Positions 19,714 to 56,988 of a stretch of DNA of 64,000 nucleotides are shown here, piece after piece (within the stretch, counting starts at the first letter, position 1; each line of letters begins with the position of its first letter). The DNA is from Clostridium sp. (lineage in GTDB: Bacteria; Bacillota; Clostridia; Clostridiales; Clostridiaceae). Location of the stretch: the NCBI RefSeq assembly GCF_036569345.1, contig NZ_DATCQT010000090.1, forward strand, positions 4,201-68,200. The letters run 5' to 3'. The notes under the pieces are model-generated. The model was given only the letters and a program-made list of their open reading frames with translations. It was not told where the DNA came from and did no database searches. Position numbers and translations under genes: made by a program.

Positions 19714-22050
19714 TTATTTATTCCCAATAGTTACATTTGCAGTTGCTTTAATAATAGAATCAACTACTGATTCCACAACTATAGAATCAGTCCCTGTTAT
19801 TACTCCAGTGTATGTTACATACATTTTTTTATCAACATCATCATAATTAACTACTGCAATAACCTTAGTTCCATTTACTATTTTAACCATAGTGGGATCA
19901 GTTATAACTTTTCCATATTGGTCAAGTACAACTATTTCTTTTTTTACAGCAACTCCCACAATTAATGAAACATTTACGTCTACAATTGTTATAGATTTTA
20001 TTGCACTTTTAGCTCTTACAATTACGTTTAATGTATCTTTAATAACATCAACCTCATCTATTGCTTTATTACCAACTGTTACAATTAATGTTGTGTTTTC
20101 CACAAAACTATTAACTGAAGTTTTGCTAGGATCAAATTTCACAGCTAATCCCTGTGCCCCAGCAAAGTCAGTTTCAATAATAGATCCTTGTGCATCATGT
20201 TTATAATAAATAAGGCTTGCAAAACCAGAAGCTTCCTTTATTCCATTTTTAGTGGAAATTCTCCAATTCGTAATATCAGGAATTATTTCATCCCCCTTAT
20301 TGTCTACTACACTTAGGACCCTATAAACAGGAGCCGTAGCATTAGCTATAATACTATTATCTCCAATGTTATTTCCAAGTTCAATCGACTTAAGTGTTGT
20401 AACCTCTGCCGATATTTCTAAATTATAGGTTGCAACCGTACCATTCACGTTTATATTTATTATATAATTCCCAGCAGCCTTAGCCTCAAACCTTAATGAC
20501 TTAACAACTCCAGTGGTTGCTACTTGCCCATCTTTATCTAATTTTTCAACTATTACATTATTAGATGTTATCCCATCATCACTATAAACTAAAGCAGTGA
20601 CATTATCACCTGCAACGTCTATAACTTCATTATTAGCATTTCTTATTACTAAATTTGCGTTTTGTTTTGTATTAACTTTAAGCTTTGGTAATGTTATAGA
20701 ATCAATTGTGGTTGTAACTGGATTTATGGTAGTTACTACATCAAATTTAGCTGCTTTTATAGTATCCTCTGCATCAAATGAAGTTCCTATATATGGAGTG
20801 ACTTCATAATTTCCAGCTTTTAATGTTCTAGCACTAATTACTATATTGTTTTTATAATAATCAGTACCACCTCTAAGTGATGCTGTAACTACTATATCAC
20901 TGGCCGAAATATCACTAGTTTTAGGAGTTACATTAAATTTAATCATATCAGGTGTTAATAAAGCACCATTATTTTGAGTTATTTTATTATATTTAACATC
21001 TTCATTATTAAACTTAGTAATTGGATTTTCGGAAGTTAACGTGAGCCCTGTAAGTTTTGTTGCTCCTACCTCAACTGTATAAGTAACTTTGACACCATTA
21101 AGAATGTTATAAGCACTTATAGTTACTGTACCAGCTTTTATAGCTTTAAAAGTAACGGTATTCACAGTTGTATCTAATGTTAATTTGCTACTATTAAGGT
21201 CAGAAGTACTATCCAGTAAGTTGCCACCCACCTCAACTATCCATCTTAATTTATTAATTGATAAATCTGTAGGGTTGTTATATTGGTCGCGTACATCGAC
21301 TCTTAAAATTACTGCCGCATCCCCAACTAAGACAGTATCTGCGGATGTTGTCACCGATAAAATTGACTTAGGGGATATTGGCTCATCCTTCCCTACTGTA
21401 TAATTATTGCTTATTGAAGATACTAATTCAGCAGTTGAAGATACCGCATCTTTATCAAATTTTTCTAACATTATAACTACAGCGTCATTTTCAGTTAATT
21501 TTTTATTTATTGTGATTTTTGCCATATTTCTATCTGTATCCAATCTTATTTCTGCATCACTTAAAGGCACTCCGTTTACTGTTGCCGTTACTTTATATGA
21601 AGAATCTGTTACGATATTGAAATCTTTTCCATATTGATCTACAGCTGTAAAATAAGCAAAATTAGATATATTTGTAATTTCATTTGTTACACTAGTAAAT
21701 GTTTTTGGATAGGCTGTTTCCTTAACAACTTGGTTTGTATCTGCAGCATCAAATCCAATTGTTTCATTACCATCTTTGTAAACAACGGCTGGTATAAGGC
21801 TTGTAGCTATAGGAAGTCCTGTAACATTATCTATCCAATCTCCATTGAAATTTTTAACATAAACTGGTCCACCTTCAACTATTGCATTAGTGATTTCACC
21901 CATATTTAATGGATCATTAGAATATCCTAAATCAAAAGCTTTATCCCCTATTACCATTGTTCCATTCTTCATTGCTGCAATCGTCGTAATAGATGTTAAG
22001 GCTGCCATCATTAAAGCAGCAAGGACTGAACTTGCAATTTTCTTGTTCAT
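19714..22050 (-). CDS. S-layer-like/Ig-fold surface protein with shared N-terminal module
   Basis: Signal peptide, shared module, then ~670 aa of Thr/Val-rich beta repeats (AVDQYG, VRDQYN, VLDQYG). Confidence 0.75.
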   Translation of the reverse strand: MNKKIASSVLAALMMAALTSITTIAAMKNGTMVIGDKAFDLGYSNDPLNMGEITNAIVEGGPVYVKNFNGDWIDNVTGLPIATSLIPAVVYKDGNETIGFDAADTNQVVKETAYPKTFTSVTNEITNISNFAYFTAVDQYGKDFNIVTDSSYKVTATVNGVPLSDAEIRLDTDRNMAKITINKKLTENDAVVIMLEKFDKDAVSSTAELVSSISNNYTVGKDEPISPKSILSVTTSADTVLVGDAAVILRVDVRDQYNNPTDLSINKLRWIVEVGGNLLDSTSDLNSSKLTLDTTVNTVTFKAIKAGTVTISAYNILNGVKVTYTVEVGATKLTGLTLTSENPITKFNNEDVKYNKITQNNGALLTPDMIKFNVTPKTSDISASDIVVTASLRGGTDYYKNNIVISARTLKAGNYEVTPYIGTSFDAEDTIKAAKFDVVTTINPVTTTIDSITLPKLKVNTKQNANLVIRNANNEVIDVAGDNVTALVYSDDGITSNNVIVEKLDKDGQVATTGVVKSLRFEAKAAGNYIININVNGTVATYNLEISAEVTTLKSIELGNNIGDNSIIANATAPVYRVLSVVDNKGDEIIPDITNWRISTKNGIKEASGFASLIYYKHDAQGSIIETDFAGAQGLAVKFDPSKTSVNSFVENTTLIVTVGNKAIDEVDVIKDTLNVIVRAKSAIKSITIVDVNVSLIVGVAVKKEIVVLDQYGKVITDPTMVKIVNGTKVIAVVNYDDVDKKMYVTYTGVITGTDSIVVESVVDSIIKATANVTIGNK

Positions 22051-22182
22051 ATGTTTTTACCTCCATTTTAAGTTTGATTTTTCATATTTAATATTAACAC
22101 CCTTAATTAAACATTAATTAAGGATTAATTTCTTTCAACTACTATAATTCCCTGGATATGTTTACATTTTTTACACTTATAT

Positions 22183-22209
22183 AACGTTTATTCTGACAAT
22201 ATAGTTGCA
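22183..22209 (-). promoter_or_regulatory. ECF-type promoter TGCAAC-N17-CGTT
   Basis: Minus strand tgcaac tatattgtcagaataaa cgttatat. Confidence 0.65.
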
Positions 22210-22320
22210 CTTTTATTAAGGTTTTTATATTTATATTTTTCGTGGGTGTCTTTGTGGGACTGTTATTGACTAAATATCCTTGAGACATAGTAAATTATTA
22301 CAACACCAAAAAATGAAAAA

Positions 22321-22352
22321 AGCCTGAAACAAAGCTTGACTCCGTTTCAGGC
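22321..22352 (-). terminator. Terminator hairpin downstream of acyltransferase
   Basis: agcctgaaac-aaagcttgactcc-gtttcaggc, flanked on the + strand by an A-run. Confidence 0.65.
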
Positions 22353-22361
22353 AAATTAATC

Positions 22362-23420
22362 TTAATGTTTTATAAATGTTACCTTTTTCCCCAACTTCAC
22401 AAATGGTGTTTCTAAATATTTATATGATATTAAAGAAATTATTATTGTAGAAATAATTGCTAATATGAATTGGAAAATTGGATTAGTCAAGCTAAAATAT
22501 TTATGAAGAACTATTCCAACATACACATTCACTACTGGATGTAACAAATATATAGAATAAGTAGCAATTCCTAAAATTTCTAATTGATATCTTATAATTT
22601 TGGGAACTGAAAAATCCATTTTATAAAATGATATAACTATACAAATTGATAAAATTGAAAAAATAGCTCTACCCATTCCAGTTATTAATACAATTTGATT
22701 CCCTTTAAATGGTAGTGTAATAAAACAGATCAAACAAACTATTAAAAGTACAATATTCATTTTTTTAGTTACTTTTATTTGTTTAAGATTATAAAAAATC
22801 GCTATCCCCGTAATATATAAATATAAATTATTAAAAGGATTAATATAAATTTGCCATTGATATGATAAATTCATTGTGGGTATTAACAAAATCTGAGAAT
22901 AATGAAAACCAATTAAAACTGTAAATAGAAAAAATAAATTCCCAAATAATATTTTTTTGTTGTACAAAAATATAATTAAAGGTGTAAATACATAATAAAG
23001 CATTTCGGATCCAATAGACCAAGTTCCCACAGCAATATAATCACTTGGTTTAATGAGTCCAACAGTTGTAGTAAGATTAAGAATTATATTAATAATAGAA
23101 TTACCCTGTTGGTTAAACGGTACTGGGTGAATAATAATTAATAGTGTAACCACCCACAATAAGGGCCAAATTCTAAATATTCGTCTTATAAAAAAGTATA
23201 AGGATGTTCTGATATCTTTTATATACCTACTATACACAATTGCCATACTCAATCCAGAAAGAATGAAAAATATGGATACTCCATAGATTCCTAACCTTCC
23301 TAAAACTGATCCAGCATTTAATTTGAAAAATGTTAATCCCACTAAATGGTACAACATAAGACTTAAGGCCATTAATCCCCTTAGCCAATCTAAAGATTCA
23401 ATGCGATTTTTATTTTTCAT
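22362..23420 (-). CDS. Acyltransferase family 3 (OafA-like) membrane protein
   Basis: RIESLDWLRGL, GVSIFFILSG, RRIFRIWPL, TWSIGSEM, YSIYLLH, YKYLETP. Confidence 0.9.
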   Translation of the reverse strand: MKNKNRIESLDWLRGLMALSLMLYHLVGLTFFKLNAGSVLGRLGIYGVSIFFILSGLSMAIVYSRYIKDIRTSLYFFIRRIFRIWPLLWVVTLLIIIHPVPFNQQGNSIINIILNLTTTVGLIKPSDYIAVGTWSIGSEMLYYVFTPLIIFLYNKKILFGNLFFLFTVLIGFHYSQILLIPTMNLSYQWQIYINPFNNLYLYITGIAIFYNLKQIKVTKKMNIVLLIVCLICFITLPFKGNQIVLITGMGRAIFSILSICIVISFYKMDFSVPKIIRYQLEILGIATYSIYLLHPVVNVYVGIVLHKYFSLTNPIFQFILAIISTIIISLISYKYLETPFVKLGKKVTFIKH

Positions 23421-32128: not shown

Positions 32129-32686
32129 TCAGTCAATGCTCTGTTCTACAAATTTTTTATATAATTCTCTACAGTTAATACTTCTATAATAATTAAGAAT
32201 TTTACTAGAATCTATTAACTTCTCTTCATTTAAGCCTATAAACATTCCATAACTACTCCATTTATAATTTTCTGGGGCTTGCACCATATTTGCTTTTACA
32301 GGATTTAAATGTATATACCGACTCACTTCTAATTTATAAGTCTCATCTTGAATAATATCCCAATGATATCTTCCTTGAAATAAATGCCCTATTAAAATAT
32401 ACTTATTGTTAAAGTATCTTGTATAAAATTCATTCAATCTCTTCATTATTTTACTTATTATTTCATTATTTGTTTCTATAACTAAATGTACATGATTTGT
32501 CATCATGCAATAGCAATATAATATAGCATTGTACTTTTCTAATACTTCTCCTAATATTCTAATGTAAACTTTATAATCTTCTACATCTCTAAAAATATCA
32601 TTTCTATGATTCCCTCGTTCAGTTATATGATATGTTGCTCCAGGATACCATATAAGTGCTTTTCTTCCCATATAATAAGCCTCCAT
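32129..32686 (-). CDS. REP-associated tyrosine transposase (RAYT; Y1/HUH)
   Basis: PGATYHITERGNHRNDIF, YCMMTNHVHL (HUH), GHLFQGRY, YIHLNPVKA, YKWSSY. Confidence 0.9.
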   Translation of the reverse strand: MEAYYMGRKALIWYPGATYHITERGNHRNDIFRDVEDYKVYIRILGEVLEKYNAILYCYCMMTNHVHLVIETNNEIISKIMKRLNEFYTRYFNNKYILIGHLFQGRYHWDIIQDETYKLEVSRYIHLNPVKANMVQAPENYKWSSYGMFIGLNEEKLIDSSKILNYYRSINCRELYKKFVEQSID

Positions 32687-32836
32687 GGTTTTATTAATTA
32701 TACTTAGAATATTCCCAATAATATTAATTTAAATCATTATTCAGTACATTTTTAAACACAAAAAGAGAACCGCCACTTAAATGACGATTCTTACTTTTTA
32801 TTTATTCTGCTATGCTGGTCCAAGTTCTCATTTTTC

Positions 32837-32898
32837 CACAAAATTCGGGCGATGCCTGACTCCCTTCGGGTGACAAAATTCGGGTGGTGCCTGTCACC
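32837..32898. repeat. REP-like palindromes on the 5' side of the RAYT gene
   Basis: acaaaattcgggcgatgcctgactccc and acaaaattcgggtggtgcctgtcacc; same consensus as 32066-32123. Confidence 0.75.
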
Positions 32899-32916
32899 TT
32901 TCTATAATGTCACCTA

Positions 32917-34302: not shown

Positions 34303-34385
34303 ATATTTTAGGGGAAACGATGAAGTACGTTCTGCATTTGGGCACCTGGAACGTATTGAGTTTATGGTGCAACCCACCCAATCTG
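34303..34385 (+). ncRNA. Cyclic di-GMP class II riboswitch
   Basis: ggaaacgatgaa-tacgttc..gggcacctg-gaacgta-ttgagtt..gtgcaacc matches class II consensus; gcac/gtgc pseudoknot; followed by a terminator. Confidence 0.85.
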
Positions 34386-34407
34386 TGTAAACAGGTTGGT
34401 TTTTTTT
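34378..34407 (+). terminator. Riboswitch expression-platform terminator
   Basis: ccaatctgt-gtaa-acaggttgg followed by T8. Confidence 0.8.
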
Positions 34408-46222: not shown

Positions 46223-46330
46223 TTTTCCCTAATTTACACATTATATTTTACCATACTTTATCATTTATTTATTAAACAAATTAATATCTTCAATGAACTT
46301 CATATAGTATAATAAAATCAACGCCTTAAA

Positions 46331-47104
46331 ATGAGAGGAGAAAGATTGATGTTATATATTATTAAAACCATTGCTAATTTGATTTTACCTCCAGGATGCT
46401 TGATCATTTCTCTGGTTATATATATTATTTTATATTACAAAAAAAACAAAGAATTACCTAAACTTATTGTTTTTATAACTTTACTTTTTTACATAATATC
46501 AATACCTCTTACCTCAAACTTATTAATGCATTCATTAGAATACAAATATCTACAACCTATTGAATTGGATGGAGACGTTATCGTAGTATTAGGTGGTGGA
46601 GCTACTTTAAGTTCTCCTGATTTAAGTGGTAGCGGTAATCTGTCAGGTTCTGCAGCTAATCGATTGCTATTAGCTGCCCGTATGCATATAACAACTGGAC
46701 TACCAATAATATTTTCAGGTGGCCAAGTATTTAAAACTTCTGGAAATGAAGCTGAAATCGCCAATCGTCAGTTATTAGATTTAGGATTAAGTAAAAATGC
46801 TGTGATTATGGAAAATAAAAGTCTCAACACTACTGAAAATGCAAATTTCACTAAAGTAATTTTAACAAAATATAAATACACAAACCCTATATTGTTGACA
46901 TCAGCTTTCCATATGTACCGGGCAATAATTAATTTTAATAATGCTGGAATAAAAAATCTCCAAATATATCCTTGCGATTTTACTACAAATAAAAAACTAT
47001 CTATTGGTTTTGATTCCTTTGTACCATCAGGTGCAAGTTTAAGTTCTTCTTCAGTAGCGTTGCATGAATATTTAGGTATAATTCAATTATTAATAAAAAA
47101 ATAA
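46331..47104 (+). CDS. YdcF/DUF218 family membrane protein
   Basis: IVVLGGG, IIFSGG, ENKSLNTTENA, LLTSAFHMYRA, LHEYLG. Confidence 0.9.
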   Translation: MRGERLMLYIIKTIANLILPPGCLIISLVIYIILYYKKNKELPKLIVFITLLFYIISIPLTSNLLMHSLEYKYLQPIELDGDVIVVLGGGATLSSPDLSGSGNLSGSAANRLLLAARMHITTGLPIIFSGGQVFKTSGNEAEIANRQLLDLGLSKNAVIMENKSLNTTENANFTKVILTKYKYTNPILLTSAFHMYRAIINFNNAGIKNLQIYPCDFTTNKKLSIGFDSFVPSGASLSSSSVALHEYLGIIQLLIKK

Positions 47105-47134
47105 CTAGCTTAATTTAGCTAGTTATTTTTGGTT
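47097..47134. repeat. 38-bp palindromic direct repeat, right copy (terminator-like)
   Basis: aaaaataactagcttaatttagctagttatttttggtt. Confidence 0.85.
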
Positions 47135-47165
47135 TTATCTATTTGTTCAATAGCATTACTTAAAC

Positions 47166-48482
47166 TTATTTTAAAGATATAAAACCCGCTACGAATGAAT
47201 CTCCTAAACCTACAGTACAAACAGGCATACATACTTTTCTACTAGGGGCCACAGCAATTGCTTGAGATTCATTTATTTTGCATATTAAATTTTCATCAAT
47301 TATTCCTTTTTTAATTAATCCCTCTATTTGTTCAATTCCTTCGGTACTAGCAGGAATTTCTTTTATACAATCCCTCAATTCTTCATATCCGCCAAACCAT
47401 CCTGTTCTTGCCCTGTTGCATGATACAAGATTTCCCATAAATAGTGAATCTCTTACCTTAATAGGATTATTCCCAGTTATTCCAACAGAGAAATTTTCCG
47501 TATGTATAATTAATTCCTTAAAATTTAATTCATTATACGTATATAAGGCCTTTTCTAATAAATCATTAATATTCTTAACATCTACTTGCATATTTCTATT
47601 TGCAAGTAAATCCTCAAATTCATTTTCATTCATTCCAATGCAATCAGCAAAATCCAGTACACTAAAAAATATAAGCTCTTTTAATTCCTTATTTTTAGTA
47701 TCCCCATTTTCGAAATATACAAATATATCATTATTTAATGCTTTTATTTGTTTTATACATTTACTTACATAATCTAATTTTTGCTGTAAATTTTCCTTAT
47801 TTGATATAATATTAAATCCAGATAACACAATAGCCCTTATACATTTTGCATTTTCTAAGGCAAATTCTAGAAAGTCTTTATTAAATTCTAGATTTTCATC
47901 TAAGTGCATTATTAATCTATTAGCACGTGGACATTTTATTTCTTTGTCCTTGTCTCCAACTATTAATGATTCATCAAATTCGAATATAAAATGTTCGTAA
48001 GGAGTTTTTTCATAATTGCACTTATCCAACTTTAGTATTTTGTTACCACTTGGTAAATATATATTCTCTCCAAAAAGAAGTGCTTTTAGTTTTTCCGACA
48101 TATAGGTGCTGTGAAGTATTACTTTATTATTTAGCATACTTAGTGCATTACATATTTGGGCTCCTGTTCCCCCTATCTTAAATTCCCACGGAAATTCATT
48201 TTTCATCCACTCACAAATTTCATTGTTTTCCACTAATAATTCTCCACCTCGTCCAGTACTTATATAACTGTACAAAGCACTGTAAAAGTCATTTTTATCT
48301 TTTATTACTGTTTCCTCATTAAACCTTGTATATAGGCATTTATCCTTTATATGTTCTTTGTTCAAATGTGTTACATAATCTATATTTGTAGCAAGCCCTG
48401 TCATAATATATTTGTTTTCATAAGTTTTAGACTTATTTTTACTTTCACTTAAAGCGCTAGTATAAAAGCAATCAACATCCAC
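47166..48482 (-). CDS. ADP-dependent glucokinase/phosphofructokinase family sugar kinase
   Basis: GLATNIDY, KIGGTGAQICNAL, CPRANRLI, LSGFN, MNENE, TVGLGDSFVAG. Confidence 0.82.
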   Translation of the reverse strand: MDVDCFYTSALSESKNKSKTYENKYIMTGLATNIDYVTHLNKEHIKDKCLYTRFNEETVIKDKNDFYSALYSYISTGRGGELLVENNEICEWMKNEFPWEFKIGGTGAQICNALSMLNNKVILHSTYMSEKLKALLFGENIYLPSGNKILKLDKCNYEKTPYEHFIFEFDESLIVGDKDKEIKCPRANRLIMHLDENLEFNKDFLEFALENAKCIRAIVLSGFNIISNKENLQQKLDYVSKCIKQIKALNNDIFVYFENGDTKNKELKELIFFSVLDFADCIGMNENEFEDLLANRNMQVDVKNINDLLEKALYTYNELNFKELIIHTENFSVGITGNNPIKVRDSLFMGNLVSCNRARTGWFGGYEELRDCIKEIPASTEGIEQIEGLIKKGIIDENLICKINESQAIAVAPSRKVCMPVCTVGLGDSFVAGFISLK

Positions 48483-48628
48483 AATAAATCCTCCCGCCTT
48501 TTATTCACATCATACTCAATCTCTACCTGCTATATTTATTAAATATAAATATTTTAATACTTTTCTAGTTTTATCTTACAAGAAATACTTAGAAGCTACT
48601 TCTTGTAAGATGTTTAAATGTGTTTACC

Positions 48629-49582
48629 CTATTTCTTGAAATTTGCTAAATTAGCCTTTGTTACAAGTTGGAATGGTATAAAATATTTTTTTTGTACGGT
48701 CTTTCCACTAGCTACCAGATTCGCTATCTCTATAGCTTTAGCCCCTTGTCCCTTTGCATCTTGAAAAACAGTTGCTATGAATTTTCCATCTTCTACAGCT
48801 TTTAACGCATCCGGAATTGCATCTATGCCTATGACTTTAATCTTATCTTTTTTACCTGCTGCTTCAATAGCATTGTATGCCCCTATGCCCATTTCATCGT
48901 TTTGTGCTACAACACAATTAATATCTAGCTTTGCTTGAATCCAATTTTCCATTAATGCCATGCCTTGAGCTCTATCCCAATTAGCTGATTGCTCTGCCAA
49001 TAATTTTATATTTGGGTTTTTAGCAAGTATTTGTTTAATCCCTTGTGTTCTTTGTACTTCAGCAGAGTTTCCCATTGGTCCATGCATTATTACTATGTTA
49101 CCTTTACCTTTTAATAAATCAGCAGCATATTTCATTTCTATAGTTCCTGCTTCTACATCATTTGATCCAACATATGCCGTTGCCTTGTCAATGTTTGAAA
49201 CTAGTGAATTAACTATAATAATTGGAATATTAGCTGCAACTGCCTTGTCGACTACTGGAGCACAAGCATTGGAATCTGTAGGAGCCATAACTATTGCGTC
49301 AACTTTCTGAGAAATCAAGCTTTCTGCTTGAGATATTTGTTTTGCTGCATCCCCCTGGCCGTCCAACCCAACGAACTCTACTCCTAACTCCTTTGCTTTT
49401 GCTTCAGCTGCACTTTTCATGTAAACCTGGAATTCATTACTTAAATTAGTGTTAATAAAACCTATCTTAATCTTTTTATTGTTACTCCCAGAGGTTGCAG
49501 TACTCTGTTTTCCACATCCTGTCAACGGCGCAAGCACCAACAATAAAGCTAGAAGTGTACCGATAACTCTTTTTTTATTCAT
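48629..49582 (-). CDS. Sugar ABC transporter substrate-binding lipoprotein (RbsB-like)
   Basis: Lipobox LTGC, QISQAESLI, ANWDRAQG, AQNDEMGIGA, GIDA. Confidence 0.92.
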   Translation of the reverse strand: MNKKRVIGTLLALLLVLAPLTGCGKQSTATSGSNNKKIKIGFINTNLSNEFQVYMKSAAEAKAKELGVEFVGLDGQGDAAKQISQAESLISQKVDAIVMAPTDSNACAPVVDKAVAANIPIIIVNSLVSNIDKATAYVGSNDVEAGTIEMKYAADLLKGKGNIVIMHGPMGNSAEVQRTQGIKQILAKNPNIKLLAEQSANWDRAQGMALMENWIQAKLDINCVVAQNDEMGIGAYNAIEAAGKKDKIKVIGIDAIPDALKAVEDGKFIATVFQDAKGQGAKAIEIANLVASGKTVQKKYFIPFQLVTKANLANFKK

Positions 49583-49656
49583 AATATTTCCCCCTTAATT
49601 TACTCAAATTTGAGTATCTTTTATTAATTGAATTAGGAATAAGTATTTACTCCTAA

Positions 49657-50634
49657 TTAATTTTTTGAATTATTTTTCTTATCAAAATATACTGCCCCCA
49701 CTATTATGACGCCTTTAACAATTTGTTGGTAATACGATGGCACATTTAACAAATCTAATCCATTATTCATAACTCCTATAATTAAAGCACCTATAACAGT
49801 ACCTTTGATTGATCCTTTACCACCACTTAAACTCGTGCCACCTATAACTACAGCCGCAATAGCATCTAATTCATACCCTTGTCCTGCAACAACTGTACCA
49901 GCCATAACTCTTGAGGATAGTATAACTCCTGCTAATCCAGTTAAAGTTCCTGCTAATCCATATACTAAAATTTTAATTTTATTTATATTTAAACCTGATA
50001 CCTCGGCTGAAACTTCATTCCCACCAATTGCATAAACATGACGACCAAACCTTGTATATTTCAGTATAAAGTTTGCTAAAACTATTACTACTATAAGAAT
50101 TATTACCGGTATCGGTATACCTATTATATATCCGCCACCAATATTATTATAAGAAGTACTTAAGTCAATTACAGGCCTTCCAGACTTATACACTAATGTA
50201 AGCCCTCTTGCTGTGGTCAGCATACCTAATGTAACTATGAAAGGAGCAACCTTGCCTTTTGCTATTATGAAGCCATTAGCTAGACCACATAATAGCCCTA
50301 TTCCAACTCCAATAATTATTGAAACAATTAACGGATATTGCCCTGGATGTGCGAAATCACAAGCCACTATTGAAGAAAATGCCAAAACCGAACCCGGTGA
50401 AAGATCAATTCCACCAGTAATAATTATAAAAGTCATTCCTACAGCTATTATTCCATTTATTGAAATTTGTCTTAATATATTCATAACATTGTCAACTGTC
50501 AAGAAGTTTTCATTAGCTAAAGTAAGTATTATACATAGCAATATAAAAACTATATATATTCCATATTCCAATAGATATCCCTTTACATTATCAATAAAAC
50601 TAACTGTTTCCTTTTTATCTAAAACCGCTTTCAT
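49657..50634 (-). CDS. Sugar ABC transporter permease (RbsC-like)
   Basis: GGIDLSPG, APFIVTLG, TRFGRHVYAIGGN, YELDAIAAVVIGGTSLSGG. Confidence 0.93.
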   Translation of the reverse strand: MKAVLDKKETVSFIDNVKGYLLEYGIYIVFILLCIILTLANENFLTVDNVMNILRQISINGIIAVGMTFIIITGGIDLSPGSVLAFSSIVACDFAHPGQYPLIVSIIIGVGIGLLCGLANGFIIAKGKVAPFIVTLGMLTTARGLTLVYKSGRPVIDLSTSYNNIGGGYIIGIPIPVIILIVVIVLANFILKYTRFGRHVYAIGGNEVSAEVSGLNINKIKILVYGLAGTLTGLAGVILSSRVMAGTVVAGQGYELDAIAAVVIGGTSLSGGKGSIKGTVIGALIIGVMNNGLDLLNVPSYYQQIVKGVIIVGAVYFDKKNNSKN

Positions 50635-52151
50635 TAAACAACTTCCCCCTTTTTATGACCAGCTGCACAAGCCATTATTTTCTCTTGACTAATTTCATCT
50701 CTCCTAAATTCACCGGTAATTTCACCTTCATATAGAACTATGACCCTATCACTCATTCCAATTACTTCAGGCATTTCTGAAGAAATCATTATTATTGCTT
50801 TTCCTTCACTTGCTAATTGACTCATTATACTGTAAATTTCAGATTTAGCTCCTATATCTATCCCTCTTGTTGGTTCATCAAGGATTATTACATCGGGGTT
50901 ACCAGAAATCCACTTTGCCATCACAACTTTTTGTTGATTACCCCCACTTAAATTATTTACACTTTGATTCAATGAATGAGTTTTAATATTAAACCTCTTA
51001 ACTAAATCCTTAGCAACTTCCTTCTCTTTTGAACCATCTATTATGTTATTCCATAGACAATACTTCTTAAGATTAACCAATGTTATATTTTCTTTAACGC
51101 TAAATTTTAAATTTAACCCTTTCAAGCTTCTATCTTCAGAAACAAAAGCAAGTCCTAACTTTATTGCATCCCTCGGCTTATTAATAACTACTGATTTACC
51201 TTTAAGAAGTATCTCTCCCGAATCAGCCTTATTGACACCAAATATAGCTTCTACTATTTCGGTTCTGCCAGCTCCCATAAGTCCAGCAATGCCCAAAATT
51301 TCTCCCTTTTGAACTTTAAAATTAATATTTTTAAATTTAGCTTCTTTACTAAAATTTTTGACTTCTAATGCAACTTCACCTACTTTAGTACTTTTTTTCA
51401 TAAAGACATCCTTTAATTCTCTTCCTACCATAAGTGATATTAATTTTTGATTATTAAGTTCTCCGGCAGTGCTTGTTTCAATATGCTTACCATCTCTTAG
51501 TACTGTGATATAATCTGAAATTTTAAAGATCTCTTCCATTTTATGAGAAATATATATTATACTCTTGCCTTTCTTTTTCAGCTCATTAATTAGTATGAAA
51601 AGCTTTTCAGTTTCCCTGGCGGTGATTGCAGAGGTAGGCTCATCCATAATAATTATATTTGAATTAAATGATATTGCTTTTGCAATTTCCACCATTTGCG
51701 CTTCTGCCACACTTAACTTTGAAAGTTTAATATTAGGATTCATCTTAACACCAATAGTATTTAGATAATAAATTGTTTGTTCTTTAATTTCCTTGTTGTT
51801 TATGATTTGAAAATGTTTTGTAGGCTCGCGACCAATAAACATATTTTCTGCAATAGTCATTTCTGGAATGAAATTTAGTTCTTGATGAATCATTGATATC
51901 CCATTTTTAAGTGCTTCTTTTGTATTGTTAATAATCACCTTATCCCCATTTAAAATGATTTCTCCACCATCCGGTTTATACATACCATTTAATATTTTCA
52001 TTAATGTTGACTTGCCTGCTCCATTTTCCCCCATTAGAGTATGTACAGAGCCCTTTTTCACTTTAATTGTTACATTATCTAGCACTTTAGCTCCTGAAAA
52101 AACTTTAGTTATATTGTTCATTTCCAAGACATATTCAGTTTCATTAATCAT
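50634..52151 (-). CDS. Sugar ABC transporter ATP-binding protein (RbsA/MglA-like)
   Basis: GENGAGKST, MDEPT, LSGGNQQKV, DEPTRGIDIG. Confidence 0.93.
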   Translation of the reverse strand: MINETEYVLEMNNITKVFSGAKVLDNVTIKVKKGSVHTLMGENGAGKSTLMKILNGMYKPDGGEIILNGDKVIINNTKEALKNGISMIHQELNFIPEMTIAENMFIGREPTKHFQIINNKEIKEQTIYYLNTIGVKMNPNIKLSKLSVAEAQMVEIAKAISFNSNIIIMDEPTSAITARETEKLFILINELKKKGKSIIYISHKMEEIFKISDYITVLRDGKHIETSTAGELNNQKLISLMVGRELKDVFMKKSTKVGEVALEVKNFSKEAKFKNINFKVQKGEILGIAGLMGAGRTEIVEAIFGVNKADSGEILLKGKSVVINKPRDAIKLGLAFVSEDRSLKGLNLKFSVKENITLVNLKKYCLWNNIIDGSKEKEVAKDLVKRFNIKTHSLNQSVNNLSGGNQQKVVMAKWISGNPDVIILDEPTRGIDIGAKSEIYSIMSQLASEGKAIIMISSEMPEVIGMSDRVIVLYEGEITGEFRRDEISQEKIMACAAGHKKGEVV

Positions 52152-52226
52152 ATTCCCACCCCCCCATTTAATTTTAACCTCTTAATTATTATTTGATTCC
52201 AAACTAATGTAAATTAAATTGTTTCC

Positions 52227-53105
52227 TTAAACTTTATCATCGGCCATAGATTCTTCATGCTCACTAATCCAACTATAAGCATCCCGTTTTTCTACAGCCA
52301 ATAATAAAAATAGAGTTTCTATAACAACCATAGAAGGTATTCTTGTAAAACTGAATTCATCGAAGAATAATTTTTCTCTTACTGCTGTATTTATTTGATA
52401 TTTACATTTATTGGCCAATGGAGACTTTTCATGACTAGTAATACAAATTGTAGTGGCCTGTTTCCCATTTGCAACATCAATTAAAGTTAATAGCCTCTTC
52501 GAAGAACCTGAATTAGATACCGCAATTACAACATCTTTTTCAGTTAAGGTATATACAAAAGCAAGTTGATTTTCCCATATGGTACTTGATACAGATGCTA
52601 TACCTATCTGATTGAATTTATATGCTCCATCTAAAGTTATAGGTATGGAATTTCCTAATGCTGCAAACTGAACTATTCTAGCATTCTTAATTGCATCTAA
52701 TATTTTTTTTAGTGTATCTTCATTCATCATTGATATAGTTTGCCTTAGCTCTTCAATTTTGTTGGCCAATATATTCTGAAGAGACTGTCCTATGTTATTT
52801 ATATCCAAATCATTAGATATATTTTTGTCTTCTGAATTTACAATCTCCTTAGCAAGTTGTATTTTCATGTGATGAAATCCCTTGAAGTCACTTTTTTTGC
52901 AAAACCTTATTATTGTAGCCTCGCTAACGTTACTTTGGAAGGACAGCTCAGAAACTGTCATATCTATAACCTTTTCTTGATTATTTAAAACATAATCAGC
53001 AACTTTTTTTTCTGCTTCGAATAGATTTTCATAAATTACTAAAATTTGATGTAATGCACTTTTCCCATTATTTTTCAATTCCAATAGCCCCTTAATTTTC
53101 GTCAT
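52227..53105 (-). CDS. MurR/RpiR family transcriptional regulator
   Basis: AEKKVADYV, VSEATIIRFCKK.DFKGF HTH; SIS domain VSNSGSS. Confidence 0.9.
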   Translation of the reverse strand: MTKIKGLLELKNNGKSALHQILVIYENLFEAEKKVADYVLNNQEKVIDMTVSELSFQSNVSEATIIRFCKKSDFKGFHHMKIQLAKEIVNSEDKNISNDLDINNIGQSLQNILANKIEELRQTISMMNEDTLKKILDAIKNARIVQFAALGNSIPITLDGAYKFNQIGIASVSSTIWENQLAFVYTLTEKDVVIAVSNSGSSKRLLTLIDVANGKQATTICITSHEKSPLANKCKYQINTAVREKLFFDEFSFTRIPSMVVIETLFLLLAVEKRDAYSWISEHEESMADDKV

Positions 53106-53165
53106 TAGATAGTTTTATTATTACATTGAGTCATATGATTAAATAGTAACTCAATATTTTCTTAT

Positions 53166-54428
53166 TTACACCTCTGGAGCATACTTAATCAAATAGTCTT
53201 CTGCTTCTGCATTCCATAGTCCATCATGTTTCTCTACTATTTTACCCAGCTCCTTAAGTAAATCATTATCACTAGCATTTTTCATATCATTAATTGCTGT
53301 TAACTTTAGGCATTTGTGAGTATACACTATCTTCTTACCACCTTCTATGTTAGGAAGGCTTAATGTAATTTTAACTGCATCATCCAGGCCAAGAATATGT
53401 GTTGCAATCTTTGCAACATTAATCTTCTTACCTTCAATCAATCTTAGCGCTTGTCTCATGTCATCTGTATTTCCTCCACTGGTACCAACTACATGGATTG
53501 CATTATAATGAACATTATAGAAATTAAATTCAGCTGAGAAATTCTTATCCTGTGGACCAGCAAAGAAATTTAAACAACCATCATATGCTAAAATAGATGT
53601 TCCTGATTCAACTAATGATTTTACTGGAGCGAGAATAAATACATCGTCAAATCCTTTGTCCCCTTCAGTTAGCCCTCGCAAATAACCTGCATCATCACTC
53701 AGACCTTTAGTATTAACGTACTTAAGTGTAATTCCTTGTTTCTTTGCCTCTTGTTCTGTATATAATTCACGTGCGAAATCTATCTTTTGTTGTGTACGTC
53801 CTGTAACTACAAGAAGCTTAGGCCTTTTAGGACCGTGTAGCGCAAAATCTATAGCTAAAAATCCCATTGGTCCGGTTGCTCCCAATAAAGCCAAGTTTCC
53901 ACCTTCACGTATACCCATTTCATGTTCATATCCACCACCAGATACCATATGATAGTTCGCATTAAATGCTCCTATGACACAAGACATTGGTTCTACTAAG
54001 GAGCCTTCAAAATATGACTCACCACTATAGGCTAGCAAACAATCCTTTTCCATAACAACGTTTGGAATTAAGATTATAGTGGCATCTCCTCCTATATAAT
54101 TATAGGAATACCCAGGAGCTAATCCTCCTTCTAAACCTAAATTTGGTTGAATTACAAATTTATCTCCTTCTTTATATTTTTCTCTCCACTTGTTACCAAC
54201 CTTTAGGATTTTCCCACAAAACTCATGTCCAACGATTACTGGATTTTCCCATACATCGTCCGGTACCTTTTTATGATTTTCTCCTTGCACTGTAGCTTTA
54301 TAACTTGACATACATAAACTATCACTCACTATTTCCGCAATTATTTCATCATCTTTCATTTCAGGCAATTCAAATTCCTCTAATCTCAAATCTTTTTTTC
54401 CATATAATCTTAACGCTTTAGTTTTCAA
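53166..54428 (-). CDS. sorE: L-sorbose-1-phosphate reductase-like zinc-binding dehydrogenase
   Basis: MKTKALRLYGKKDLRLEEFELP, SDSLCMSSYKA, VGHEFCG, EPMSCVIG, VVGTSGGNTDDM, GGKKIVY. Confidence 0.8.
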   Translation of the reverse strand: MKTKALRLYGKKDLRLEEFELPEMKDDEIIAEIVSDSLCMSSYKATVQGENHKKVPDDVWENPVIVGHEFCGKILKVGNKWREKYKEGDKFVIQPNLGLEGGLAPGYSYNYIGGDATIILIPNVVMEKDCLLAYSGESYFEGSLVEPMSCVIGAFNANYHMVSGGGYEHEMGIREGGNLALLGATGPMGFLAIDFALHGPKRPKLLVVTGRTQQKIDFARELYTEQEAKKQGITLKYVNTKGLSDDAGYLRGLTEGDKGFDDVFILAPVKSLVESGTSILAYDGCLNFFAGPQDKNFSAEFNFYNVHYNAIHVVGTSGGNTDDMRQALRLIEGKKINVAKIATHILGLDDAVKITLSLPNIEGGKKIVYTHKCLKLTAINDMKNASDNDLLKELGKIVEKHDGLWNAEAEDYLIKYAPEV

Positions 54429-54514
54429 GTTAAATCCACTTCCTTCATTAATTGTCTTTTATAACTCACACTCAACCCATAACTTTATGGAAAACTCACC
54501 TCATGTAACCCTCC

Positions 54515-55345
54515 TTATCCTCTTGTTTTTCCACCAGCTATATTATAAGTTACTCCATGAATATAGCTGGCTCTATCGGACGCCAGGTAGCAAACCAGAT
54601 CTGCAACTTCGCTTAATTTCCCAGGTCTTCCAATAGGAGTAATAGAACTATTAATATATCCTTTTCTTAAGTCATCTATAGTAATATTACGAGTATAAGA
54701 TAACGCTGTTTCATATTCAATGGTTCTTAATCCAGTTGCTTCTAAAATACCTGGTGCTACCCCAACAACTCTAATACCTTTTTTACCTAATTCTTTTGCC
54801 CAAGATCTTGTAAATGAATTAACAGCATTTTTCGTTGCCGCATAAGCACTTTGTCCTTCTGATCCTTCAAGTCCACATTCAGATGACATATTTATTATTA
54901 CACCAGAACCCTCTTTAATCATTTCTCGTGCGACAGCTTGAGCACAAAAAAATACACCCTTTTGGTTAACGTTTACAATTTTATCAAAAGTACTTTCATC
55001 TAGCTCATATTTCCCATACGGTTCTTTATCATCTACTAACAATCTTGGAATATTTATTCCAGCATTGTTTACTAAAATATCAATTTTACCAAAAATTTTC
55101 TTTGCCTTAAGTACCATTTTATTAACACTATCTAAACTTGTCACGTCTGTGTTTATATATATCATTTTGCCATTATCACCATTTTTGTCAAACTGAAGTT
55201 CCTTGGAACTCATATCACTCACAACTACATTTGCGCCATTTTCTAAAAATTCTTGTGCTATTTCTTTACCTATTCCTGATGCACCACCTGTAACAATTAC
55301 TGTTTTTGACCTCAACTCATCCAACCACTTACCCATATTATCCAC
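54515..55345 (-). CDS. sorD: Sorbitol-6-phosphate 2-dehydrogenase-like SDR
   Basis: TGGASGIG, NNAGINIPRLLVD, GLEGSEGQSAYAATK, NSFTRSWAKELG, NIAGGKTRG. Confidence 0.82.
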   Translation of the reverse strand: MDNMGKWLDELRSKTVIVTGGASGIGKEIAQEFLENGANVVVSDMSSKELQFDKNGDNGKMIYINTDVTSLDSVNKMVLKAKKIFGKIDILVNNAGINIPRLLVDDKEPYGKYELDESTFDKIVNVNQKGVFFCAQAVAREMIKEGSGVIINMSSECGLEGSEGQSAYAATKNAVNSFTRSWAKELGKKGIRVVGVAPGILEATGLRTIEYETALSYTRNITIDDLRKGYINSSITPIGRPGKLSEVADLVCYLASDRASYIHGVTYNIAGGKTRG

Positions 55346-55420
55346 CCTTCTTATACTTATCCTAACAAAGGACTAAATTGATCTTTATTAAAAATATTTA
55401 TTTTCTACAATCAAGCTTGA

Positions 55421-55478
55421 CGAAGTTTTATTTTCTCTATTATAATTTTATGATAATACGCGAAGTTTTATTTGTCAA
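55421..55478 (-). promoter_or_regulatory. SigA promoter TTGACA-N17-TATCAT with two 13-bp direct-repeat operator candidates
   Basis: cgaagttttattt at 55421-55433 and 55461-55473; -35 at 55473-55478, upstream of sorD. Confidence 0.65.
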
Positions 55479-55579
55479 TACAATATTTATAAAAAATTTT
55501 ATTTCTTACCTTTAATACAATTATATTATAATTTTAATATTTAATACCTCGCAATACATTAATTGTAATTTTCTATCCA

Positions 55580-56084
55580 TTATAATTTCTCTGTATGTCC
55601 ACTTATATCGAGCATTGTCCCTGATATTTTCTGCCTATATTTTAAAACCTCGTAATCCGTACAATGGCATCTTTGTTGACCATAATAACCACAAGAACAA
55701 GGATTCATAGCAGCTATAAGCATGAAACTTGATGGATAAACATTGGCATGTTTAACTCTAGCAATAGTTACATTATTGTCTTCCACAGGCTGCCTTAAAG
55801 CATCTAAAGTTTTCTTATTAAACCCTGCGATTTCGTCTAAAAATAATACACCGTTATGCGCAAGCGAAATCTCCCCGGGCATAGCATTATTACCTCCACC
55901 TACAAGTGAATTCATAGAAGCATTGTGATGTGGTGATCTGAACGGTCTCTCTGTAAACTTGAAAATCTTCTTCGTCTCTAAATATGTCATTTCTATGATT
56001 ACCACGAGCTATAATATGGAGTAAAGTTACACCCTCTGAAATCTGTGCCAACAAAATACACATCCTGTTTTTTAACTTATTCAC
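55580..56084 (-). pseudogene. Collapsed relic: RAYT 5' fragment joined to an internal comM fragment
   Basis: HIIARGNHRNDIFRDEEDFQVY (RAYT) joins TERPFRSPHHNAS..ISGTMLD (comM); ~55607-55957 is roughly 90% identical by eye to 60345-60692. Confidence 0.88.
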
Positions 56085-56119
56085 TATTTACCTAAACGTA
56101 ACAATGGATTTTTATCAAT

Positions 56120-56300
56120 GTCATGAAACCTTAGCTTCACGACGAAAAAACTACTTAAATATATTATTGCATATATTTAAGTAGTTCCATACCCTGGCTA
56201 TCGCCAAGTTTTTTCATCTCTCTTTTACCAAATTTTTCAACTCTCCAACCAAACTTCTCATCTGCTTAATTCGCATCAGATGTCCCATCTTCGCCTTGCC
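56120..56300 (-). repeat. Dispersed repeat family copy (24-bp hairpin, terminator-like stem, ~110-bp conserved tract)
   Basis: gtcatgaaaccttagcttcacgac; aactacttaaat/atttaagtagtt; ctggctatcgccaagtttttt..aaacttctcatctgcttaattcgcatcagatgtcccatcttcgcc. Confidence 0.85.
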
Positions 56301-56457
56301 ATAGAGCTAGATATAATAAAACAAATTGATATAAACACCTATTTAGCTATTTATATACTTGTATTACCCTTCATACAATAAAATATGTTATAATTTTATA
56401 TGAAGTAGTTAAACATTATAATAGTTATATTAAACCGAAACATACAGGAGGATATAT

Positions 56458-56988
56458 ATGAGCAGTAAAAATCTACAGGATTTTTTGAATAAGAATACAG
56501 AAAAAGAATCTAAAGAAAATAGCATAGATTGGGAAGTCCAAAAAAAATTTTGGTTACAGTCAGTAGACCATTTTTATTCTGATGTAAAAGAATGGCTTAA
56601 ACCATTTATAGATAAAAATCAAGTTCGAATAGAATTTAAAAATATTACTTTGCAAGAAGACCATATTGGAAAATATGATATAGACGCTATGTACATTTAT
56701 ATTTCAAATGAAAAAGTATTTTTTGAACCGATTGGCACTTTATTAGTTGGAGCCCGTGGAAGAATAGACATGAATGGAAAAAATGGAGTAACAAAATTTT
56801 TGTTAGTGGGTGAAAGTTCAAAAGGATTTAAAATTACCGTTACAGTAGGGAATGAAACACCTATAAAGACTGAAGATACAACTAAAGAAAAATTGGTTTG
56901 GAAGATATCTACACCACTTCCAAATATAAAGTTTTTAACATTAAATAGTGATTCCTTTTCAGACGCTCTGTTGAGCATAATAGAATGA
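56458..56988 (+). CDS. Hypothetical protein, first gene of a coupled pair
   Basis: 176-aa ORF, RBS caggagg; ATGA overlap with the next gene. Confidence 0.8.
   Translation: MSSKNLQDFLNKNTEKESKENSIDWEVQKKFWLQSVDHFYSDVKEWLKPFIDKNQVRIEFKNITLQEDHIGKYDIDAMYIYISNEKVFFEPIGTLLVGARGRIDMNGKNGVTKFLLVGESSKGFKITVTVGNETPIKTEDTTKEKLVWKISTPLPNIKFLTLNSDSFSDALLSIIE

Follow-up and report, generated by a model that had tools for sequence, protein, structure and literature searches.

Sedentary chromosomal integrons and CALINs, the latter being clusters of attC sites without an integrase, are known to carry decayed duplicates and degraded recombinase genes. ComM proteins of the YifB family (TIGR00368) are AAA+ helicases of natural transformation, which they serve together with DprA. 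REP-associated tyrosine transposases (RAYTs or TnpA-REP; for example RayT/YafM of E. coli), the enzymes of REPtrons, are class 2 Y1 HUH nucleases, and their HUH and Y---NP motifs are used here as defined in PMC6006769. In the window, which comprises the whole 64,000-nt stretch of Clostridium sp. DNA that was analysed, relatives of these components are joined in an intact RAYT-comM-dprA operon, and parts of RAYT and comM genes recur a short distance away as minute, fused scraps. We conclude that the minus-strand segment 55603-56048 is most probably a non-functional, deletion-collapsed relic of a second RAYT-comM(-dprA) module, headed by a RAYT of a different lineage, named beta.

The intact RAYT (61470-62069) scores 86.4 bits against the model NF047646, 'REP-associated tyrosine transposase' (cutoff 80), and matches Pfam Y1_Tnp (2.5e-17). 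It contains a HUH motif (NHVHLL) and a class 2 Y---NP motif (YIHLNP), and hairpin repeats precede it. A sequence search for solved structures of RAYT found none. The comM and dprA genes behind it form an accessory set: contig C18 carries the housekeeping comM-dprA-topA-codY cluster, whose products share 46% (comM) and 38% (dprA) of their amino acids with those of the accessory genes. An accessory comM is present in 10 of 30 genomes of the genus. We found no plasmid carriage of the RAYT-comM-dprA module, and our literature search returned no description of this module or of the cassette array in which it lies.

This operon sits in arrays of a repeat of about 170-250 nt that separates small cassettes on the same strand, including toxin-antitoxin pairs and PD-(D/E)XK genes. 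With blastn and nhmmer, we located 14 copies of the repeat for this genome; in a relative (G022), the array has 24, spread over 20 kb. In the copy next to the relic, the conserved 5' tract is accompanied by a hairpin (56149-56186) and a T-run, and the last letters of the tail are ...GGATGTGTATTTTGT at 56051; the hairpin arms of the repeat covary between copies. The 5' tract (56265-56300 in this copy) folds in all copies into a further small hairpin with covarying arms (AGATG-GGA-CATCT, AAATG..CATTT, AGCTG..CAGCT), and an invariant GATGCG comes after this hairpin. The tract is kept across arrays with alpha, beta and gamma RAYTs (lineages described below) and across RAYT-less arrays, and a comparison of repeat subtype with RAYT lineage gave no clear type-specific pattern. 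A degenerate half-copy (nhmmer model positions 2-106, E 6e-5) occupies 58720-58852; it begins at the dprA stop codon and extends into a galU relic. Searches of Rfam found no known RNA family over the array repeat; in another part of the window, they identified a c-di-GMP-II riboswitch at 34304-34387 (RF01786, 68.5 bits).

The relic lies at the last array position before a sorbose operon. Read on the minus strand from 56300 to 55603, the region is a mosaic of four parts, namely an array repeat, an antitoxin scrap (29 nt), a RAYT scrap (65 nt) and a comM scrap (352 nt), all on one strand and in the order repeat, cassette, RAYT, comM that is seen in real arrays (Table 1). The joins between these pieces share only 0, 1 and 2 nt, and three of them fall within 130 nt. 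A preliminary description of this DNA had placed the RAYT/comM junction at gtttac/agagagacc and the end of the comM segment at SGTMLD, and both placements are borne out: RAYT and comM homology have 2 nt in common (AC, 55953-55954) and stand in different reading frames, and the comM homology stops at 55603-55606. No comM 3' or dprA scraps were detected downstream in the next 250 nt to the sorbose operon. The spacer found there has no homolog in the relatives, and in a comparison of the sorbose operon flank, the homologs in G042, G011 and G012 stop at the gene start. Within this spacer (55421-55473), there are two direct copies of aaataaaacttcg, 40 nt apart, which may be an operator.

Table 1. 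Features of the relic, its surroundings and the intact reference operon (positions in the window).
Feature	Position	Strand	Basis
Array repeat copy	56051-56300	-	blastn and nhmmer
2-nt filler (TG) at the join of repeat tail and antitoxin scrap	56049-56050	-	Base-by-base reading against G014:C243
Phd/YefM-type antitoxin scrap, codons AQISEGVTLL	56020-56048	-	28/29 nt to G014:C243:348-376
Beta-lineage RAYT (class 2 Y1/HUH) scrap, codons ~13-35 (HIIARGNHRNDIFRDEEDFQVY)	55953-56020	-	blastn
Internal scrap of a second accessory comM, codons 266-382	55603-55954	-	92.9% nt identity to 60340-60691
AT-rich spacer and presumed sorbose operon promoter region	55346-55602	-	Module homology stops here
Intact reference: RAYT(gamma)-comM-dprA operon, accessory paralog set	58846-62069	-	Pfam and NCBIfam
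galU C-terminal relic directly after intact dprA	58506-58757	-	85.9% nt identity to the 3' end of G018 galU

The comM scrap, whose identity to the intact copy had been put at roughly 90% by eye, aligns without gaps to its counterpart 4.7 kb away, with 25 mismatches over 352 nt (E 3e-150). An ORF across it matches Pfam Mg_chelatase (9.7e-51, profile positions 71-191 of 207) and, partially, NCBIfam TIGR00368 (6e-51), which makes its descent from a YifB-family gene unambiguous. The Walker B motif is present, and Walker A, the N-terminal Lon/ChlI domain and the C-terminal domain are missing; with them, the PF13541 and PF13335 matches of the intact copy are lost, so that the relic does not have a complete ComM/YifB architecture. 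In a phylogenetic tree, the relic groups as sister to the intact comM of this genome (support 93/93). Compared with comM of six relatives, the relic reaches at most 88.9% nucleotide identity and the intact copy at most 91.2%.

Pairwise, the two comM copies differ by a dN of 0.029 and a dS of 0.277 (omega 0.106). When the 25 differences were polarised with six outgroups, 9 synonymous and 7 nonsynonymous changes fell on the relic branch, versus 5 and 1 on the intact branch, and comparisons of orthologues among intact comM copies gave omega values of 0.003-0.05. Relaxed selection on the comM scrap is thus confined to its own branch. Several of its changes, among them DEIAEF to DEIAGF and SGPMLD to SGTMLD, affect otherwise invariant sites. 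Of six residues private to the scrap, four (G309, V322, A335 and T378) are missing from all 17 top full-length matches of a search over 5.8 billion proteins. Among the best matches of this search, no closer functional ComM lineage with the private residues of the relic was found, and relic-specific 21-mers and a 24-mer across the junction were absent from public genome and metagenome contig collections. From the branch counts together with the omega of the orthologues, it follows that this comM remained functional through most of the time since the two copies separated and has been drifting for about the last third of it. The segment has the properties of a pseudogene: it is truncated at both ends, out of frame and under relaxed selection relative to functional copies.

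Gene prediction gives a different impression, because the frame over 55580-56005 is open for 141 codons and a gene caller annotated a 100-aa Mg_chelatase product here. The idea that this ORF is a new functional gene for a truncated AAA+ fragment is nevertheless scarcely credible and the least probable of the readings considered here. Its product would have neither Walker A nor an oligomerisation/lid domain, translation would have to start at GTG with no ribosome-binding site in evidence, and the relic branch has an elevated nonsynonymous rate, with replacements at sites that are invariant elsewhere. No record of the exact relic ORF was found.

The presence of a RAYT motif upstream of comM, noted in the preliminary description, was confirmed by blastn, both to the intact RAYT gene (55962-56019 versus 61971-62028, 82.8%, E 3e-11) and to relatives, of which G006 is closest (90.8%, 59/65 nt, E 1.5e-20), followed by the second module copy of G011 (89.6%, E 5e-20) and by G018 (86.8%). 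Within its own genome, the scrap is detected by tblastn with an E of 4e-7, and it is 85.5% identical to the second Y1 gene of the window (32563-32617). These matches establish descent from a RAYT gene in the sense of homology, not of function: the scrap has no HUH motif, which in the intact copy lies past codon 35 and hence in the lost part, and no motif with the catalytic tyrosine (Y---NP).

RAYTs of these modules fall into four lineages. The alpha clade comprises the first copy of G011 and the proteins of G020 and G019 (82-87% identical among themselves), the beta clade those of G006 and G018 (83% identical), gamma is the RAYT of the operon in this window, and delta is represented by G004 and by contig C222 of this genome. 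Between clades, identity drops to 49-62% (56% for full-length gamma versus beta). Omega within clades is about 0.10-0.11, and each lineage is under purifying selection. The relic is assigned to beta on 22 codons of the most conserved N-terminal motif of the family, at which it matches beta RAYTs (G006, G018 and G011 copy 2) in 21 of 22 residues, gamma in 17 and alpha in 11-12. Two further RAYT genes of this genome stand outside the operon. The gene at C222:1555-2124, on a contig of 2.4 kb, is intact, shares 83% of its amino acids with the G004 operon RAYT and is not followed by comM. The second intact RAYT-like gene of the window (32129-32900) scores 74 bits against NF047646, just below the cutoff; in the spacer in front of it, which is AT-rich apart from this, a C-rich motif (cccgaattttgt) occurs as two direct copies.

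A beta RAYT scrap next to a gamma neighbour means that the relic is no straightforward duplicate of the intact operon: its comM part is sister to that of the neighbour, whereas the RAYT parts belong to different lineages. Of the earlier proposal, one part therefore stands and another does not. RAYT and comM were indeed linked in a second, diverged copy that decayed by internal deletion, for which G011 offers a parallel (see below); that this copy was a duplicate of the neighbouring module, moved as a unit, is not supported in this form, the histories of the two halves being different. On similar grounds, a recent in-place duplication of the RAYT(gamma)-comM-dprA operon with subsequent decay is improbable, even though the comM scrap is a sister of the intact comM of its own genome and nearer to it (92.9%) than to that of any relative (at most 88.9%). 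Such an event would have left a gamma RAYT, for which 17 of 22 residues compare poorly with 21 of 22 for beta, as does the nucleotide identity to the neighbour (83%) with that to G006 (91%). A dS of 0.28 at an omega of 0.1 implies a long functional period rather than a recent copy, and the longest exact run common to both comM copies is 59 nt, which leaves no room for a recent conversion tract.

The discordance between comM and RAYT extends beyond this genome. Across this genome (G000), G006, G018 and G011, comM is 93-95% identical while full-length RAYTs of the different clades share only 53-62%, and the identity profile between modules falls sharply at the comM start codon, from which we deduce that the RAYT gene has been exchanged relative to comM-dprA. 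With each RAYT lineage under purifying selection, this marked discordance suggests that nuclease genes are swapped while the comM-dprA chassis behind them is conserved.

Upstream of the RAYT scrap lies a short stretch containing LLAQIS, which had been described as resembling the start of the nuclease-like gene at 58509 (PD-(D/E)XK-like). This link was rejected: the ILLAQIS stretch matches that gene in 17 of 20 nt, and 9 of 500 shuffled sequences score equally well. The stretch instead matches, in 28 of 29 nt, the 3' part of an 84-aa ORF in the cassette array of G014, which passes Pfam PF02604 (PhdYeFM_antitox; 30.9 bits, cutoff 29.8). The G014 cassette is preceded by the same repeat tail as the stretch in the relic. 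We therefore regard the latter as homologous to a PF02604-passing gene, but with 10 codons not as a gene itself.

The feature might be suspected to be an assembly or binning artefact, that is, a chimeric join of different loci or strains, since the genome is a draft of 222 contigs with an estimated contamination of 3.2%. We consider this very unlikely. Both flanks are unique in the 4.7-Mb assembly, no exact run between relic and intact copy exceeds 59 nt, and the joined sequences share only 2 nt, so that a graph assembler cannot merge them. Moreover, an independent metagenome contig (ENA ERZ27248663, k119_238353, k=119, 68,205 bp) carries the whole feature identically; it has different ends and aligns to the contig of the window (C90) at 99.995%, with a single mismatch in 19,513 nt that lies outside the feature.

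A biological route to such joins that dispenses with a full second module at this site would be the repair of a break at the edge of the array by template switching in one complex event, which copied in short patches from a module elsewhere or from incoming DNA. Multi-junction products of microhomology-mediated template switching resemble dense joins of this kind. The three joins within 130 nt, their 0-2 common nucleotides, the 2-nt filler and the 29- and 65-nt pieces would all fit. Against this stand the common strand of all pieces and their real-array order, and the templates themselves: neither a beta RAYT nor a comM diverged by 7% exists elsewhere in this genome, and a second module is thus needed in any case. 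We rate patch repair as a slightly poorer candidate than recent duplication, and as improbable. Collapse of a second module by deletion remains our preferred reading, although three joins within 130 nt would be an uncommonly high density if the deletions were independent, and one complex event may account for them.

Relatives show how modules of this type decay. An independent case is G011 (C12:2326-9110, L015), where an intact RAYT-comM-dprA module of alpha type and, directly behind it, a decayed one of beta type stand in tandem, with an array repeat in front of each. The beta copy has a broken RAYT, a comM without codons ~192-452 and a dprA that is both frameshifted and shortened by a 5' deletion; its deletion joins share about 8-11 nt (imperfect) and 0-1 nt. 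The two G011 copies are 95.7% identical over dprA and 450 nt downstream, 94.7% over the comM 3' part and 84.5% over the comM 5' part and RAYT 3' part, and their RAYT 5' ends do not match at all, a gradient that, judged by sequence identity, is the same as in this window. Other modules are damaged in their own ways. In G010, a 36-aa comM scrap lies 6 kb from the operon, comM of G020 is frameshifted, and the G022 module is without a RAYT. In G002 (C7:5009-10844, L025), an insertion of about 5.2 kb separates aa 1-139 of the RAYT from aa 140-191, comM contains a stop codon and dprA is frameshifted. The damage in these five genomes indicates that decay of the module is common and that two-module states recur. 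We found neither a conspecific strain nor a relative with a full-length module at this site, as the preliminary description had envisaged for related strains, and 40 relatives gave no contiguous match across the junction.

A further candidate from G018 was set aside. C60:7332-7390 gives a real E-value against the window, but at 59 nt and 45/59 identities it is too short and diverged to serve as a firm third case. The window itself has a 44-aa hydrophobic small ORF at 57789-57923, whose homolog in G018 (76%) lies 25 nt from a comM-like scrap of about 59 nt (VLYLDEITEFNKK), the region concerned being C60:7332-7522; together, the ORF and the scrap may be a shared old relic.

G018 also illustrates the genomic neighbourhood. 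Its galU lies near dprA, and the galU 3' end directly abuts a DUF218 gene. The homologs of these genes in the window are 46300-47104 for DUF218 (80% nucleotide identity) and 58530-58721 for the galU 3' end (86%). Here they are separated by an 11.4-kb block (47105-58529) that contains a HEPN-like pair and a PD-(D/E)XK scrap besides the whole sorbose operon and the relic. By its place next to the intact dprA, the galU relic marks the ancestral neighbourhood of the intact module. In G018 itself, galU and a gene for a 181-aa membrane protein form a pair that occurs twice (C60:11509-12910 and 21436-22848, L016/L028), flanking the operon and cassettes, which suggests a segmental duplication within a plasticity zone.

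We propose the following origin for the relic. The ancestral order would most likely have been array repeat, Phd/YefM antitoxin(-toxin) cassette, possibly another repeat, beta RAYT, comM and dprA. That a full module with dprA and the rest of RAYT and comM once stood here we infer from the conserved operon order elsewhere, as the site has no full-length module. This second module would have coexisted with the present intact operon, the two bearing beta and gamma RAYTs, respectively. Its comM would have been under selection for most of its separate history and then have drifted for about the last third, and at least four illegitimate deletions with 0-2 nt at the joins, in whatever order, would have removed at least 3.5 kb from the redundant module. 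For the two-module state itself, two origins appear about equally plausible, namely a duplication followed by RAYT exchange, or acquisition of a second module whose comM-dprA similarity was kept by recombination.

At the least, the segment should be annotated as a pseudogene; no gene corresponds to the 'Mg chelatase' ORF of 100-141 aa. As a fossil, the segment documents that RAYT and comM were also linked in a further module, whose RAYT is of another lineage, and together with G011 it indicates that two-module states recur and are resolved by decay of one copy. A broader and more tentative idea is that at least two modules, with RAYTs of different lineages, regularly coexist in the arrays of this Clostridium group, that a RAYT 'head' is recombined onto the comM-dprA chassis and that the superseded module then erodes. 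If so, the relic would be the fossil of the former servicing module of the array, and the turnover of RAYT types, with beta lost in both this genome and G011, would reflect competition or incompatibility of nucleases on the same repeats. These considerations can be of use for working out the function of RAYT operons and cassette arrays and the boundaries of their units. The relic as such is an ordinary pseudogene; the array system to which it belongs is apparently undescribed.

Compared with described REPtron/RAYT systems, the relic retains the N-terminal RGNxRxxIF motif of a class 2 Y1 HUH nuclease, but with 22 codons and no catalytic motif. Its intact neighbour resembles these systems more closely, in that it passes the curated RAYT model, has both motifs and follows hairpin repeats. 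Differences concern the module and the repeats: the parent module of the relic couples RAYT to comM and dprA, a coupling unmentioned in PMC6006769, and the repeats are composites of ~170-250 nt that separate cassettes, not short dispersed REPs. With ComM/YifB proteins, the relic shares its descent from a YifB-family gene, and its parent stood in the usual comM-dprA order; it differs in that it keeps only residues 266-382 and derives from an accessory paralog that shares about 46% identity with its housekeeping counterpart on another contig. By analogy, the arrays may be likened to sedentary integrons and CALINs, since they consist of one-directional cassettes with toxin-antitoxin cargo, and the putative servicing genes are often broken or lost (G020, G002, G022, G011 copy 2 and the relic). 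Here, however, there is no tyrosine-recombinase integrase and no attC, and the candidate enzyme would be a Y1 HUH nuclease. Finally, the relic matches ordinary bacterial pseudogene decay by deletion bias in its truncation at both ends, its broken frame, its joins with little or no shared sequence and the raised dN/dS on its own branch, and it differs from it in being unusually compact, with four pieces, from three genes and a repeat, within 700 nt.
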